64,000 nt of DNA from an uncultured Verrucomicrobiae bacterium (GCA_963702845.1 OY969763.1:416001-480000), one strand, 5' to 3'. Counted from the stretch's first letter, positions 22,722 to 28,126 are shown. Notes: a model not told the origin generated them from the sequence alone. Translations and numbers: made by a program.

Positions 22722-24965
22722 ATGAGCGATACGATGCGAATTTGTCCAAAGTGCGGCGTCCCCGTTTCACCGGAGGCGCCGCAGGGGTTATGTCCAAAAT
22801 GCGTTTTGGAGCAGGTTGCAATGGGAACGGAGGCGGGGCAGACGACGGAGCACAAACCTATGCCTCCGACGCTAGAGGAGTTGACGATAGCATTTCCACA
22901 ATTGCAGATCATCGAATTGGTGGGGCAGGGCGGGATGGGGTTTGTGTTCAAGGCACGGCAGCCGAAGCTGGAACGTTTTGTGGCGTTGAAGATTTTGCCG
23001 CAGACGCTGGCGTTGGATCCAGCATTTGCGGAGCGCTTCCAACGGGAAGCGCGGGTTTTGGCAAAGCTGAACCATCCGAACATCGTCACGATTTTTGATT
23101 TCGGACAGGCGGGCGGGTTTTTTTATCTGCTGATGGAGTTCGTGGATGGCGTCAATCTCCGGCAGGCAATGAAGCTCGGTCGATTTACGGCGGCGCAGGC
23201 GCTGGATATTGTTCCGAAAATTTGTGACGCACTCCACTTCGCGCACAACGAGGGGATTCTGCATCGCGATATCAAGCCGGAGAATATTTTGCTGGATTCG
23301 CGCGGGCGGGTGAAGATTGCGGATTTTGGGATTGCGAAGATTTTGGGCGCTGAAGCGGCAGCGGAAACGAAAGTAACTGCGCCACAGCAGGAGCACGTCA
23401 CGGGCATTGTCGGGACGCCGAACTACATGGCGCCCGAACAACGGGAACATCCAAGCGATGTCGACCAACGCGCAGACATTTATTCGTTGGGTGTGGTGTT
23501 TTACGAAATGTTGACGGGCGAGTTGCCCGTCGGAGTTTTCGCGCGCCCATCGCAAAAATCGCCGGTTGATCCTCGTGTTGATGAAATTGTATTGCGGACG
23601 TTGGAGAAAGAACGGGAGCGCCGACAGCAGAGCGCGGATGAGGTGAAGACGCAGGTGGAGACGATTGTCGAAACACCGCAGGCGCAATCGCCCCAATCCT
23701 TTTGGAAAAACGGCCACTACAATTACCGTTCAAAACAGACGTTTCTGGGATTGCCGTTGGTGCATGTCGCATGGGGAATAAATCCAGAAACCAGACGACT
23801 ACACCTCGCAAAGGGAATTGTTGCAGTTGGTCCGAGAGCGATTGGTTTAGTGGCGGTTGGCATTGAATCGTATGGTCTTTTTCCCGCAGGCGTTTTGGCC
23901 GTCGGTATAAGCCCGGTTGGGCTGTTTGCGCTTGGACTTGCTGCGGTTGGTTTGTTTTCAGTGGGGATGACCGCAACAGGTCTGGCGACGCTAGGACATT
24001 GGGCGACTGGGTTGATTAGATTTCATTCGGTGCTGTTGTTGTTGCTGGCTGTTGCAGGCGCGTTCGGTCTGAGCAGATTGATTGGATCAATTCTCACGGA
24101 TGCTTTTCGCGCGGCGAATGGAGGAGGTTCTGGCGGAACTGGCGTACCGCCGGTTATGAGCAGCGCGACACCGACGCCGCCGGATCGTTTCTGGAAACGA
24201 TTTGCAGTTGTCGTGCTCCTGTTAATTACGATTCCGATTGCGATTGCGATCATCGGGCTTCTCGCGGCAATTGCTATTCCGAATTTTGTGAGGGCGCGCG
24301 AACACGCGCAACAGTTGCGGCAATTGCAGCAGCAAACACGCGAGCCAGCGGCGCTGTTCAGTCCAGTAATCGATCCGAGCCTCGGCGATTCCGGCTATGA
24401 ACTGATCAGCACACTCGTAAAGCCGGGATATGCGGCCGTGGCGAAATTTCAGCTCATCGACGAACGGCATTCCGACGTAAAAACAATCCCAGAGTTAAAT
24501 TTCTATCTCGGAGCGCCGGCGACCAGCTCCAATGTGTCGCTGATCACAACGTGGCGCGTCGAACCTCTTACCTCCGAATCAGGCGCATGGACCATAAACG
24601 TTGAAGGCAAGCAGGTCGCGCTACGGCAGCATCAACAGGCAACGCTGGAACTCGGCAAATTGCTACCCACCGATGCGAAGATTACATTGTGGCGCGCGGT
24701 TAAACCCGCCCGCTCGTTTTGGGTCGGGCCGGGCGAATGGTCTGAAAACCAATGGTCCAGCATCCCGCTTTTTGTCGGTTTGGACGAGCAGAACAAAGTT
24801 GTTATTCGGGCCAATATCAAGCTATTCGTCTGCCCATTGCCCGCCGAGTCAGTCCGCGACTGGGCTTCGCCGGTTTGGCAACTCGGCGATTGGGAGCAAA
24901 ACAACGTGATCAAGAACGCTCTTGCACACTCACAAAAAATCGAGCAACCACATCTGAATAATTGA
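22722..24965 (+). CDS. Membrane Hanks-type Ser/Thr protein kinase
   Basis: N-terminal CxxC/CxxC, GQGGMG, VALK, HRDIKPEN, DFG, YMAPE, then TM segments and extracytoplasmic domain. Confidence 0.92.
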   Translation: MSDTMRICPKCGVPVSPEAPQGLCPKCVLEQVAMGTEAGQTTEHKPMPPTLEELTIAFPQLQIIELVGQGGMGFVFKARQPKLERFVALKILPQTLALDPAFAERFQREARVLAKLNHPNIVTIFDFGQAGGFFYLLMEFVDGVNLRQAMKLGRFTAAQALDIVPKICDALHFAHNEGILHRDIKPENILLDSRGRVKIADFGIAKILGAEAAAETKVTAPQQEHVTGIVGTPNYMAPEQREHPSDVDQRADIYSLGVVFYEMLTGELPVGVFARPSQKSPVDPRVDEIVLRTLEKERERRQQSADEVKTQVETIVETPQAQSPQSFWKNGHYNYRSKQTFLGLPLVHVAWGINPETRRLHLAKGIVAVGPRAIGLVAVGIESYGLFPAGVLAVGISPVGLFALGLAAVGLFSVGMTATGLATLGHWATGLIRFHSVLLLLLAVAGAFGLSRLIGSILTDAFRAANGGGSGGTGVPPVMSSATPTPPDRFWKRFAVVVLLLITIPIAIAIIGLLAAIAIPNFVRAREHAQQLRQLQQQTREPAALFSPVIDPSLGDSGYELISTLVKPGYAAVAKFQLIDERHSDVKTIPELNFYLGAPATSSNVSLITTWRVEPLTSESGAWTINVEGKQVALRQHQQATLELGKLLPTDAKITLWRAVKPARSFWVGPGEWSENQWSSIPLFVGLDEQNKVVIRANIKLFVCPLPAESVRDWASPVWQLGDWEQNNVIKNALAHSQKIEQPHLNN

Positions 24966-25708
24966 CACTATCAAAACCATCCTCTTTCGCCGACGCCTCA
25001 AGCGCCTTCGTGACGACGCACTGGACGCGGGTATTGCAGGCGCAGGGGAATTCGATGGATGCGAAGGCGGCTTTGAGCGACTTGTGCGCGGGATATTATG
25101 CGCCGGTGTTTGCGTTTGTTCGGCGCTGGACGAACGACGAAGAAGCAGCACGTGATTTGACGCAGGAATTTTTTGCGCGGTTGCTGGCGAAGAACGGCAT
25201 TGATAACGCGGATCGGCAACGTGGGCGGTTTCGGTCGTATCTGCTGGGCGCGGTAAAACACTTTCTTTCAGACGCTCGTGACCGTGATAAACGACTCAAA
25301 CGCGGTGGCGGGCAGCAGATACAATCGCTCAGCGCGTCGACGGAGACATCAACGTCGGTGCAATTGCCGGACCCGAATGCCGTTAGTCCTGACCATGAGT
25401 TTGATCGCAAATGGGCGCTGACGATTTTAGAGCGGGCGTTGCGATTGCTCGAACAGGAACACAATTCGAATGAGAAGGTGTTTGACGTGTTGAAACCGTG
25501 GTTGACTGGAGATACGGAGAATTTGAGCCAGGCGGATGCGGCGCGAGAATTGGGAATGAATGAAGCAGCCGTGAAGGTGGCGATTCATCGGCTGCGGCGA
25601 CGTTTTCGAGAGATTATCAAAAAGGAGGTTGGAGATACGTTAAATGATCCGGCGCAGGTAGAGCAGGAGTTGCAACATTTAATCAGTGCGTTGGGGGCGG
25701 GGCGTTAA
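24962..25708 (+). CDS. ECF sigma-70 factor (kinase-associated type)
   Basis: FVTTHW, ARDLTQEFF, GRFRSYL, region 4 AVKVAIHRLRRR; 4-bp overlap with kinase. Confidence 0.88.
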   Translation: MTLSKPSSFADASSAFVTTHWTRVLQAQGNSMDAKAALSDLCAGYYAPVFAFVRRWTNDEEAARDLTQEFFARLLAKNGIDNADRQRGRFRSYLLGAVKHFLSDARDRDKRLKRGGGQQIQSLSASTETSTSVQLPDPNAVSPDHEFDRKWALTILERALRLLEQEHNSNEKVFDVLKPWLTGDTENLSQADAARELGMNEAAVKVAIHRLRRRFREIIKKEVGDTLNDPAQVEQELQHLISALGAGR

Positions 25709-25914
25709 GGCTGAAACGGAAAACAGATGGCGGTAATGAGCATGTTTTCGTAGCGCTGCCACAGTTCATCGGCGGGGAGTGCGCTGGCTGACGCGTCGAA
25801 TTCGACGGTGACGATGGGAAGGTGTAAGGTCTCGCCTGCGTAGGAGCCGAGGGAACCATCGAGGGCTCCGACTTTACTCACCTTCAGGTCGCATGTGGCG
25901 GATATCGCTTCAGC
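25705..25914 (-). pseudogene. 3' fragment of the IS-interrupted M14 murein-peptide-amidase-like gene
   Basis: AEAISATCDLKVSKVGALDGSLGSYAGETLHLPIVTVE continues the 5' fragment in frame once the IS is removed. Confidence 0.85.
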
Positions 25915-26163
25915 CCCTATGAGGTTTGTCAATACGTAGTGTGCGTCGATGATATTTTTTTGAGTTGATCGCGCGGAGCGTAGTGGAACGGAGCGCAGTC
26001 GCGAGCGGTAGCGGTTGGACACTGTTCCATCGGCACGTGTCGTTCTTGGCGCGGCTTTGTTTATCTGTTCCTCTTCAAAGTTCCTTTCTTATTTTCTCTC
26101 AAAGCAGATTTCGTGAGGTTTGCTAAATCGGTGTCGCCGCGTTTTGTGTGTCGGGAGATTGTC

Positions 26164-26317
26164 CCGCACCAGCTCCTATCCGGACAGTTGAGATAAGACT
26201 CAACGCCCACTGTGTCTTACTTGCCTGACTGCGGCGACCGGGGAGTCCGCCCCTTCTAACGGACGGATGAACGCAAGGTTCACCAGCTGCAGCTACGGAC
26301 TGGACTCGCCCGATCGC
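26164..26317 (-). ncRNA. Putative bridge RNA/seekRNA: target-binding loop 26234-26317 and donor-binding loop 26164-26234
   Basis: Two stem/internal-loop/stem modules folded by hand; loop strands match the reconstructed target and the donor junction; transcript ends unknown. Confidence 0.72.
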
Positions 26318-26374
26318 AAATTGTTTCACGCTCTTAACTCTGGAGGTTCTGGTCACTAAAAAATTTAATGTGGT

Positions 26375-27526
26375 TCACACTCCGATCCAGCCGAGGTCTG
26401 CCATGGTGCAACGGCCGGTTCTCCAGCGCCACAGGTCCACGGCCAGTTGCCGGGCCAGGGCGATGACGGTTTTCTTCTTCATGGCCGTGCCGGCGGCGAG
26501 TTTGGTTTTCATTTTAGCGGCGGCCTTCCAGTGCGGTTGCCACATCAGAAAGCGCCAGACCGCTTCCACCAGGATCGCTCTGACTCGTCCGTTGCCCATG
26601 CGATCGATGCTGCCGACGCGCCGTTTGCCGCCCGAACTGTGTTCGCCCGGGCAACAGCCGGTGTAGCTGCCGATCTGTTTGCGATTGTGAAAGCGCTGCC
26701 AGTCGCACACCTCGCCTTCCAGTGTCACAAGAGTGATCTCGCCAAGGCCCTTGGGCCGTGGTTGTTCTTTGACGCGCGCGATTAGTTCCTCTTCCAGTTC
26801 CTGCCGTTGTGCCTCCATGGCGACGAGGACCTCGCGGAGCTTTTCGAGAACACCGAGCAGCCATGGATCGAGCGTGGAAAGTTTTTTCCAGTTGCGCGCT
26901 CCCCACCAGCGATGGGGCAGTTTGACGTGGCTGTATTCGGCGGCTTGCCCGTGCCCGCGATTGGCGAGCATGCGAATGGCTTTGTTGAGGAACTGTCTTC
27001 GTCGCGTGCCTTCGCGCTGGCGCTGCTCTTTGTCCGAAGGAATGCGGATGGGCGCGAGTTCGTTGATGTTGCCATCGACCCAGCGGGACAGGCGCAGGCA
27101 AAGGGCGCGCGCATCCAGCTTGTCGGTCTTGCGCTGGCCGTTTAGGGCAATCGGCGTGATCAGAAAACTTTGCGCACCGGCGGCGACCAGTTCGCGATGG
27201 AGCACGAAGCCGAACCCACAACTTTCCTGCACGCAGAAAACTTGCAGGCCTTCGCCGGTCCACTTCTGAACCTGGGCGATGAGTTGCTCACGGCTGAATT
27301 TGCGCGGCGCTTGGGGTGAAGCGTGATCGCGTTGGGCTACCGCCATGATGAACTCCAGATGCACGTCCAGGCCAAGCTTGAGGGCGGGTTTGCCGGCAAG
27401 CAGCACAGGACGTGGCAAAGGCTGGCGCGGCGGCACGTTTGCCAGCTTGCCCGCGGCAGGCACGATGGTTAGGGTTGGGACTGTCATGTGGGGTTTGAGT
27501 AAATATGTTTTCATTTTCAAAAACAT
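26375..27526 (-). CDS. IS110-family DEDD recombinase/transposase
   Basis: GLDVH (D), VQESCG (E), KTDKLD (D,D), C-terminal GCCPGEHSSGG Ser, IALARQL; true start may be later. Confidence 0.93.
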   Translation of the reverse strand: MFLKMKTYLLKPHMTVPTLTIVPAAGKLANVPPRQPLPRPVLLAGKPALKLGLDVHLEFIMAVAQRDHASPQAPRKFSREQLIAQVQKWTGEGLQVFCVQESCGFGFVLHRELVAAGAQSFLITPIALNGQRKTDKLDARALCLRLSRWVDGNINELAPIRIPSDKEQRQREGTRRRQFLNKAIRMLANRGHGQAAEYSHVKLPHRWWGARNWKKLSTLDPWLLGVLEKLREVLVAMEAQRQELEEELIARVKEQPRPKGLGEITLVTLEGEVCDWQRFHNRKQIGSYTGCCPGEHSSGGKRRVGSIDRMGNGRVRAILVEAVWRFLMWQPHWKAAAKMKTKLAAGTAMKKKTVIALARQLAVDLWRWRTGRCTMADLGWIGV

Positions 27527-27568
27527 CGTGACCCCGTGTGGGGCTGCGACTCAACCCTTCATGACATC

Positions 27569-28126
27569 TAATGCTTTGGCGTGGTCTGGGCCATCGTAAT
27601 CGATGCAGGTGAGCGGTTGGTGCAACGAGATGATTCGGGTCGGCTTGTATTTGGCGATTAACGCGTATAAGGCGCGGCTTTCCGGTTCGGAAAGAGGTTT
27701 TGCACCATGGTCGGTTTGCTGATTCCAATTCTTTGCAGGGAAATTGCGATTTAGGTCGATGCCGCGAATGTTGCGGCGTTGTTGATGAAACGCACCGTCG
27801 GGATTTGCTTCCGGCACGAGCAGGACGCGACGGTCTGTCAGGGTCGCTGGATGATCGCGCAGGAATTCGCCGAGGCGCTGCAGGAGTGGCGTGCCGACGT
27901 GTTCATTGCCGTGAATGCTGGCAAGGATCAGCACGGTCTCGGAAGTCTTTTTACTTTTGCCGAAGATATCGCACCCGATTGGCCGGCCTTCGACTGACTT
28001 GCCGATGACAATGTACTTCGAGGATGGGGTGATGTCATTGGCAGGACTCTCGCATCCGGAAAGATATGCCGATGCTACGACCAGTCCGAGGGATGCCAAC
28101 TTTCGGTTTGCAGTTTTATTTTTCAA
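27569..28126 (-). pseudogene. mpaA: 5' fragment of an M14 zinc carboxypeptidase (MpaA-like) lipoprotein, interrupted by the IS
   Basis: Lipobox LSGC, GKSVEGR, IHGNE, NPDG, RRNIRGIDLNRNFP, SEPES, ISLH. Confidence 0.75.

Follow-up and report, generated by a model that had tools for sequence, protein, structure and literature searches.

How does a mobile element choose the place at which it inserts? The question is raised by an insertion sequence (IS) in a 64,000-nucleotide (nt) stretch of DNA from an uncultured Verrucomicrobiae bacterium (GCA_963702845.1 OY969763.1:416001-480000; this whole stretch is the window in what follows), in which a recombinase gene of the IS110 family is followed by a 154-nt segment (26164..26317) that a first-pass annotation had singled out as a bispecific guide RNA. 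The comparisons reported here favor a reading, to which a probability of about 85% is given, in which this segment would be the guide RNA, a seekRNA or bridge RNA, of an intact IS1111-type element of the IS110 family. The structure of the RNA, the covariation of its guides with the flanks and with the element end, the element ends themselves and the core are directly supported by these comparisons. The element and the gene that it interrupts are read on the minus strand throughout, with positions counted from the first letter of the window.

The recombinase gene (26375..27526) encodes an IS110-family protein of 383 amino acids (aa), probably of the DEDD type, and is the only long open reading frame (ORF) of the element. 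Its product matches the NCBIfam model NF033542 ('IS110 family RNA-guided transposase') over residues 52-367 with 170.6 bits at a cut-off of 140, and the Pfam family Transposase_20 (PF02371) at 1.8e-16; the match to DEDD_Tnp_IS110 (PF01548) is weak, with 18.6 bits under a cut-off of 29. Candidates for the four acidic residues of an N-terminal RuvC-like DEDD domain (D54, E101, D135 and D138) were picked out visually in the motifs GLDVH, VQES and DKLD, and the translation contains GCCPGEHSSG, which fits the G--P----SG motif that section 6 of PMC11187229 gives for the C-terminal domain of the IS110 family. The protein belongs to the IS110 family sensu lato. More than 2700 homologues are found at E < 1e-10, the nearest of them 74-93% identical, about 382 aa long in a family ranging from 370 to 417 aa, and derived from Verrucomicrobiota of the Limisphaerales/Pedosphaera type. 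Among plasmid-borne relatives, even the best reach no more than 34% identity, and a PDB sequence search with the recombinase returned no chain at E <= 0.01, both consistent with the earlier opinion that the class is described and this member probably is not. The element is likely an undescribed member of a described class.

The predicted RNA begins 57 nt past the stop codon of the recombinase gene, within the 457 nt that separate this stop codon from the right end of the element. Support for its fold rests on relatives, because the fold of the single sequence is not significant (z = -1.54). Loci were gathered from genomes (13), metagenomes (41) and a class-wide genome search (30, with matches in 34 of 401 genomes), and, in an nhmmer search with the window RNA, 47 close-family loci with 38 distinct sequences proved to carry a homologue 3' of the gene. 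Structure tests were run on 37 distinct sequences, with truncated L027 left out and L061 being a duplicate of L001. Across these 37 relatives, standard pairs occupy 95.3% of cells, against 85.8% in shuffles and 34-47% with slid partners, and none of 500 shuffles reaches the observed values on any of five measures; compensatory changes occur in 18 of the 42 pairs of the structure first proposed.

Specifically, the RNA consists of two modules. Module 1, the target module (26234..26317, 84 nt), is built of three outer stems stacked on one another, with an internal loop and an inner hairpin. The stems listed for it in the first-pass annotation, GCGATCGGG/CCCGGTCGC, GAGTCC/GGACTC and the inner GGTGAAC/GTTCATC, are exact, and a further stem, GTCC/GGGC, had been missed. 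Its outer helix shows compensatory changes in 9 of 19 pairs, with 99.6% of cells paired, and its inner hairpin in 4 of 7. In module 2, the donor module (26164..26233), the inner stem-loop at 26183-26208 has good support: the proposed stem GGGCGTTGAG/CTCAACTGTCC is present, 99.4% paired, with compensatory changes in 5 of 9 pairs. The loop coordinates were likewise exact (GCTGCAGCT at 26285-26293, CGTTAG at 26256-26261, ATAGGAG at 26173-26179 and GACA at 26213-26216). The outer stem proposed for module 2, CCGCA/TCAG with CTGG/TGCGG, fared worse: it is 90.3% paired with no compensatory change in its seven pairs, one pair is broken in 13 and another in 9 of the 37 relatives, and its base C97 is also used by a stem of module 1. 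An alternative closure suggested by RNAalifold fits slightly better (95-98% of cells paired, with one-sided changes only). Unaided, RNAalifold recovers the module-1 stems together with the inner helix of module 2, with compensatory changes in 18 of its 45 pairs, and the alternation of G:U and G:C in the stems is consistent on the minus strand only. Overall, compensatory changes support module 1 and, within module 2, the inner helix but not the outer stem first proposed.

The limits of the element can be read with precision. It spans 25917..27569 with both AG cores included, or 1651 base pairs (bp) counting one AG, the left core lying at 27568-27569 and the right core at 25917-25918. Read on a sequence ruler, the left flank ends in ...GCATTAG with its last base at 27568, and the element starts with ATGTCATGAAGGG at 27567; the element ends with ...TTGACAAACCTCAT plus AG at 25917, that is, with a boundary of ...CAT+AG, and the right flank continues from 25916 as GGGCTGAAGCG, beginning GGGCTGAAGC. 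The same exact span is found in the six copies of the source genome, a single contig of 6.03 Mb, and AG stands at both junctions in all six of them and in nearly all loci of relatives, which bears out the apparent AG core of the first-pass annotation. Insertion is site-specific with a short common core and no longer duplication, the pattern by which the IS110 family is recognized. Subterminal inverted repeats lie 5 nt inside the left end (ATGAAGGGTTG, 27552..27562) and immediately before the right core (CAAACCTCAT, 25919..25928). In the family consensus, ATGATGGGTTG at the left end stands opposite ATGA-GGGTTG at the right; ATGA(T)GGGTTG, 5 nt in from the left, faces CAACCCTCAT, which abuts the right core, in 10 bp with one unpaired base. 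The terminal extensions accordingly measure 5 + 0 nt, or 7 + 0 or 5 + 2 depending on which AG is counted.

The five other copies in the genome are near-identical to one another and about 95% identical to the window copy. Over the 154 nt of the RNA, the two lineages differ at a single position, which lies in a guide loop. The covariance model finds the RNA in this genome only within the six element copies, and no solo RNA copy that lacks the recombinase gene. Most differences between the two lineages fall in the tail between the RNA and the right end (25919-26163), which is 245 nt long here, 215-290 nt in the close family and about 100-130 nt in distant relatives. Among the relatives, one locus has a partial left end (L036:364-471) directly upstream of the target and left end of a full copy, which suggests a nested or tandem insertion or its remnant. 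At the right end of another, L025, ...CATAC is followed by TCAG and by sequence like the left flank of L025 itself, so that either this end is aberrant or rearranged or its boundary was mis-set.

With the ends in place, the internal loop of module 1 can be compared with the flanks. The ends were set independently of the loops, on the left by nhmmer and on the right by resemblance to the right-end motif. The 3' loop strand, CCGUUAG (26256..26262), terminates in the core AG and matches the left-flank target GCATTAG (27568..27574, left core AG included) in the same sense, with five Watson-Crick pairs, one wobble and one mismatch. Because this strand has the sense of the left flank, it would pair with the bottom strand of that flank and is referred to as the bottom-strand guide. 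The 5' loop strand, the top-strand guide GCUGCAGC (26286..26293), is complementary to the right-flank block GCTGAAGC (25907..25914), which begins 2 nt after the core. The complementarity claimed for the 5' loop is therefore real, but the claimed 8/9 match with the core included is wrong: the true match is 7/8, with one G:A mismatch, at a distance of 2 nt from the core, and the joined target from which the claim had been derived, CATTAG+CTGAAGC, omits two bases of the flank.

In the close family, the usual flanks read ...CGATTGCAAC...GCCGGGTTAG to the left of the cut and GC GCTGCAGC GCATGGTTAGGC to the right of it, and the loop usually carries (C/G)GGUUAG as its 3' strand and GCUGCAGC as its 5' strand. 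Thirty-six distinct rows of guides and flanks were available, of which 31 could be scored on each side. Against the 7 nt to the left of the cut, the left guide has no mismatch in 16 rows, one in 13 and two in 2; at an offset of +2, the right guide has no mismatch in 22 rows and one in 4, and fits poorly in 5. Most rows are related to one another and have the canonical pair, so that the evidence lies chiefly in the variants; seven guide variants in close relatives change along with their flanks. Guides ACUUUAG and ACUGGAGC of L016 and L047 stand beside flanks ACTTTAG and GC GCTCCAGT, and the comparison of ACUGGAGC with GCTCCAGT establishes that the 5' guide is the complement of the flank and not a copy of it. 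Guide GCGUCAG of L025 accompanies flank GCGTCAG, and guides CAUUCAG and GCUUCACC of L063 accompany CATTCAG and G GGTGAAGC. In L032, guide GCUGGAGC faces flank GCTCCGGC with one U:G pair, and the left guide has two mismatches. In the five sister copies, finally, guide GCUUCAGC is found with GCTGAAGC at two sites and, with one U:G pair, with GCTGGAGC at three.

This coupling extends to distant relatives at about 35-50% protein identity. A covariance model (R1), built from the supported helices, locates the RNA downstream from the recombinase match in 19 distant loci at E <= 0.01 in a large search, and additionally in L082 (E = 0.006 in a smaller covariance-model search). The target loops of these loci are wholly unlike those of the close family, yet they track their own flanks: in 10 of 16 usable loci (L064, L065, L066, L067, L068, L072, L075, L083, L084 and L087), the reverse complement of the 5' guide occurs with at most one mismatch 0-3 nt past the ...CATAG end. 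By our own arithmetic, the chance that an 8-mer matches with at most one mismatch in four positions is about 0.0015 per locus. In L085 the match lies 7 nt away, and five loci have none, at least L080 being cut by the end of its contig. As this first search of the distant loci was loop-guided, the ends were set again by the terminal 4-mer and the inverted repeat with the left end, an end being taken as credible where the flank ends in AG and the element starts with A(T/C)... Such guide-free ends were credible in 8 of the 19 loci, and the right flank matches in all seven that can be scored; the left guides of these loci fit with 0-2 mismatches, L072 only weakly. The covariation of guide and target over other insertions, the check that had been proposed for the reading, is thereby found in close and distant relatives alike.

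The second module would, in turn, hold the ends of the element. Its 5' strand, GACAC (26212..26216), contains GACA, which complements bases 2-5 of the left end (TGTC), and its 3' strand, GGAUAGGAG (26173..26181), contains AUAG, which equals the right end plus core. The annotation had parsed the latter match as ATAGG plus core; only AUAG matches, and the next G belongs to the flank. On the left side, the earlier claim of complementarity is supported by covariation, as bases 2-5 of the left end and the 4-mer of the RNA are fully complementary in four different states: TGTC/GACA in the window copy and many others, TGAC/GUCA in L065, L066 and L068, TAAC/GUUA in L083 and CGCC/GGCG in L081; what qualifies it is a set of A:C exceptions in some 20 loci. 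L084 has TGGC/AUCA, with one wobble and one mismatch. Judged from these states, pairing of module 2 with the left end appears to be real, if short and imperfect. On the right side, the strand is present in 65 rows and missing from two. CGGAUAG stands in 64 of these 65, with CGAAUAG in L064, and is invariant in the 37 aligned close-family rows.

Several observations weigh against the guide-RNA reading. On the donor side, AUAG and the right end ...CATAG are both invariant, which leaves no covariation signal there; pairing comprises only 4 nt per side; about 17 loci with ATGCC ends keep GACA, giving an A:C mismatch at position 4 of the left end; and the four loci with AAGCC ends, three with GACU and one with GACA, likewise have an A opposite C. 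Additionally, a short RNA of ISEc11 without the second module sufficed for transposition, according to the Discussion of PMC11187229. On the target side, the counts cannot be taken as independent, many rows being related and sharing one canonical guide and target. Five of the 31 right-flank rows fit poorly at +2, among them L053 and L025, the latter with its aberrant right end; when other offsets are allowed, L015 and L063 fit at 1 and L017 at 4, as does the natural insertion L037, and L053 fits nowhere. The spacer between core and block thus varies from 0 to 4 nt, mostly being 2, and the top-strand guide omits the core, which every guide of IS621 includes in the description given in section 7 of PMC11208160. 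The 5' guide of the window copy mismatches its own site (G:A, 7/8). In the fold, the closing stem of module 2 is undecided, neither closure being supported by covariation. Finally, Rfam gave no match at E <= 1 over 25700-27800, and neither a sigma-70-like promoter nor a T-tract terminator was found flanking the RNA on the minus strand.

The donor-side observations lend most to an alternative in which module 1 alone guides, as a short seekRNA, and module 2 is a scaffold for protein binding or processing, while the recombinase reads the ends via the subterminal inverted repeats. Such conserved repeats do exist, and CGGAUAG(G/C)AG of the 3' strand stays unchanged even at 35% protein identity, as expected of a motif bound by protein. 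The 4 + 4 nt of end pairing with its A:C mismatches would also be expected, and the 82-nt RNA of ISEc11 was enough by itself, the role of the long form being left open in the Discussion of PMC11187229. It is because of this ISEc11 result that the scaffold view of module 2 stays live. A pure scaffold does not, however, predict that the 4-mer of the 5' strand changes together with bases 2-5 of the left end in four states; this covariation speaks against module 2 as a mere scaffold, and makes guidance by module 1 alone an unlikely account, though the strongest of the competing ones. Much less probable is pairing at the level of DNA, with a folded single strand of the element guiding targeting as the subterminal guide sequences of IS200/IS605 do. 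Covariation would look alike for RNA and for single-stranded DNA of the same strand, but the stems lean heavily on alternation of the G:U type, RNA guides have been shown experimentally for this protein family (PMC11187229, PMC11208160), and published RNAs that co-purify with their transposase have the same layout. A conserved structure of the 3' untranslated region, a stabilizer or terminator that resembles the flanks by chance, would agree with the unremarkable single-sequence fold and the silence of Rfam, but it is barely credible given that the loop strands, too, track the flanks across more than ten guide classes and that the minus strand has no T-tract terminator.

Under the preferred guide-RNA reading, the following course of events can be proposed. 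The RNA would probably be co-transcribed with the recombinase mRNA, as has been proposed for IS1111 elements (PMC11187229, section 8), be processed and then bind the DEDD recombinase; the missing promoter and terminator of its own fit such co-transcription. Module 1 would read the target on both strands, and module 2 would hold the joined ends of the element, GACA pairing with bases 2-5 of the left end and AUAG probably with the right end and core. By strand exchange at AG, the element would then be inserted, presumably from a circular intermediate. In such a circle, a promoter may form at the junction. TTGACA (25927..25932), a -35-like hexamer with its last base 9 nt from the right terminus, core AG counted, is a candidate half of it, and TTGAC stands at the same distance from the right end in close and distant relatives. 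Its role as the -35 box of a junction promoter is plausible by analogy with the junction promoter of ISEc11 (PMC11187229, Fig. 2 legend); no convincing -10 box for it was seen by eye. The window copy itself would have landed at a look-alike site inside a gene for an MpaA-like peptidase, splitting the gene. As to the claim that this is an RNA-guided recombinase orthologue, it finds support in the score above the cut-off of NF033542, in the position of the RNA 3' of the gene and in loops that covary with the flanks and with the left end. The further word programmable is an extrapolation from the natural variation of the guides.

The closest published parallels are the seekRNAs known for the IS1111-family elements ISEc11, ISPa11, ISKpn4 and ISPst6 (Siddiquee et al. 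2024, PMC11187229), and bridge RNAs have been predicted in the right end of 93% of the IS1111 elements in ISfinder (Durrant et al. 2024, PMC11208160). As described for the IS1111 seekRNAs in PMC11187229, the RNA lies in a long non-coding region downstream of tnp and has no promoter of its own before it, and the match to the top strand of the target stands 5' of the match to the bottom strand (sections 6 and 9). Its predicted sizes of 84 and 154 nt are close to the 82 and 154 nt of the short and long forms in ISEc11 (section 8). The subterminal inverted repeats are likewise an IS1111 trait (11-13 bp in PMC11187229, 7-17 bp in PMC11208160). Measured against the same account of IS1111 elements (PMC11187229), several features differ: the protein has 383 aa with a conserved N-terminal extension of about 50 aa, whereas 330-350 aa are described; its motif is GCCP....SG, with C in place of the L of GL-P....S(t)G; the extensions beyond the repeats come to 5 + 0 nt, or to 7 + 0 or 5 + 2 with the core, where 7 (or 6) + 3 bp are described; and the two target matches are separated by a spacer of about 2 nt, unlike the overlapping matches of ISEc11.

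A second comparison is with IS621. As in its bridge RNA, there are two internal loops whose strands would read opposite DNA strands around a dinucleotide core, the target module precedes the donor module, the recombinase is probably of the DEDD type and the right end carries a -35-like box (PMC11208160). In contrast to IS621 as described there, the RNA lies at the right end and not the left, the order of the guides within the loop is reversed and the core is AG instead of CT (PMC11208160). The mechanism as such was already described in 2024, and the element adds a well-supported example to it, not a new kind of system. The bridge RNA of IS621 is reportedly also the subject of Hiraizumi et al. 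2024 (PMC11208158).

Where the clade may differ is in the geometry of target reading. Judged on the main-text descriptions of IS621 and of the published IS1111 seekRNAs, it is conceivable, though rather doubtful, that this clade reads its target differently, with the bottom guide ending at AG and the top guide lying on a separate 8-nt block 0-4 nt further on. If this tentative geometry were true, the two matches would never overlap and natural sites with different spacers would still be usable; one guide would set the position of cleavage, and a loosely tethered second guide would add specificity. It would also mean that the RNA of the sister lineage could have placed the window copy in trans. 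The one position at which the lineages differ in the RNA distinguishes GCUGCAGC in the window copy from GCUUCAGC in the other five, and the window site, GCATTAG followed by GG GCTGAAGC, fits the sister guide at 8/8. Insertion despite the mismatch, guidance in trans and later mutation of the guide are all possible explanations.

Beyond this locus, the family provides a naturally diversified series, with more than ten guide variants and their matching sites, a common AG core and covariation on the donor side, the last of which bears on a possible role of the second module in recognizing the element ends in IS1111-type RNAs. Its value thereby lies in a clean comparative data set and in a possible extra orthologue for engineering. 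Additionally, it presents an RNA-guided element specialized on attC-like repeats in Verrucomicrobiota, one off-target insertion of which inactivated a peptidase gene.

The repeats in question are those into which the sister copies have inserted. All five sister copies sit in near-identical sites, (C/G)(C/G)GTCAG to the left of the cut and GCGCTG(A/G)AGCGC to the right, a target of the form ...CCGTCAG followed by GCGCTGAAGCGC. Their flanks lie in repeats of about 95 nt that are bounded by xxxxAAC and GTTAGGC-like ends, such as GCCTAAC...GTTAGGC at 4.8367 Mb, and the canonical target of the family carries GTTAGGC 16 nt past the cut. Folding gives a long, imperfect hairpin for one repeat (z = -2.8) and nothing significant for two others. 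A single-query nhmmer search finds 15 repeat copies in the genome, of which 3 are occupied by the element; the unoccupied ones read CCGTC-CGCTGCAGC, without AG at the right spacing. The genome contains no free perfect target site, the one weak match having 3 mismatches in 19 positions. A search for an integron integrase gave a best TIGR02249 match of 85.9 bits against a cut-off of 265, and matches below the cut-off occur in all 14 control genomes. In view of the mixed folding, the absence of a free perfect site and the absence of an integrase above cut-off, the repeats are called attC-like and not attC; the repeat family could be a cluster of attC sites without an integrase. The usual landing site of the element family is such an attC-like repeat, and the window copy is off-target, in a peptidase gene.

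Elements of an IS1111-attC group are reportedly treated by Tetu & Holmes 2008 and by Post & Hall 2009. The family described here resembles this group in inserting, in a fixed orientation, near the GTTRRRY end of attC-like repeats, and differs from it in its host, a member of the Verrucomicrobiota whose genome has no integron integrase above cut-off. Like that of ISKpn4 and ISPst6, which target one end of attC sites (PMC11187229), its target may be a folded repeat. The position of the cut differs, at 16 nt before GTTAGGC here and 8 nt before GTTAG in ISKpn4, which Table 1 of PMC13604230 gives as CGGCTTGAA and CGAATTGTTAG on the two sides of the cut.

The attC-like repeats of the source genome are partly paired, 1-2 kb apart, and are found at about 176 kb and at 1.70-1.73, 1.81, 2.76, 2.85, 4.29-4.32 and 4.84 Mb (for example L096, L097 and L098). 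A 70-aa ORF of the locus L004 (3182-3391, minus strand) matches the Pfam family XFP_C at 3.1e-12 over profile positions 149-202 of 202, the last 54; XFP_C is the C-terminal domain of phosphoketolase, and the ORF holds only its end. The 3' end of this ORF, about 95 nt, recurs more than 20 times in the genome, clustered by the attC-like repeats and three element copies.

The gene that the window copy has split encodes an MpaA-like peptidase of the M14 family. Its N-terminal part (27551..28126), whose last codons and stop are supplied by the element, matches Pfam Peptidase_M14 at 5.5e-22 over profile positions 16-183 of 286, and its C-terminal part (25708..25917) aligns to the C-termini of the homologues P0122, P0123 and P0125. 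The two halves together align to the intact metagenomic homologue P0122 (255 aa, 84% identical), with the break at DHAK-AL/G-AEAIS, where the slash marks the point of interruption, and the gene picks up in frame past the element. An orthologue with an empty site was sought in 60 genomes of the order, and none was found at E <= 1e-20. As both halves are undamaged, the insertion is probably recent. Judged by eye from their translations, two ORFs adjoin the split gene: one of 747 aa (22722-24965) that resembles a Ser/Thr kinase, and one of 248 aa (24962-25708) that resembles a sigma factor of the extracytoplasmic function (ECF) type.

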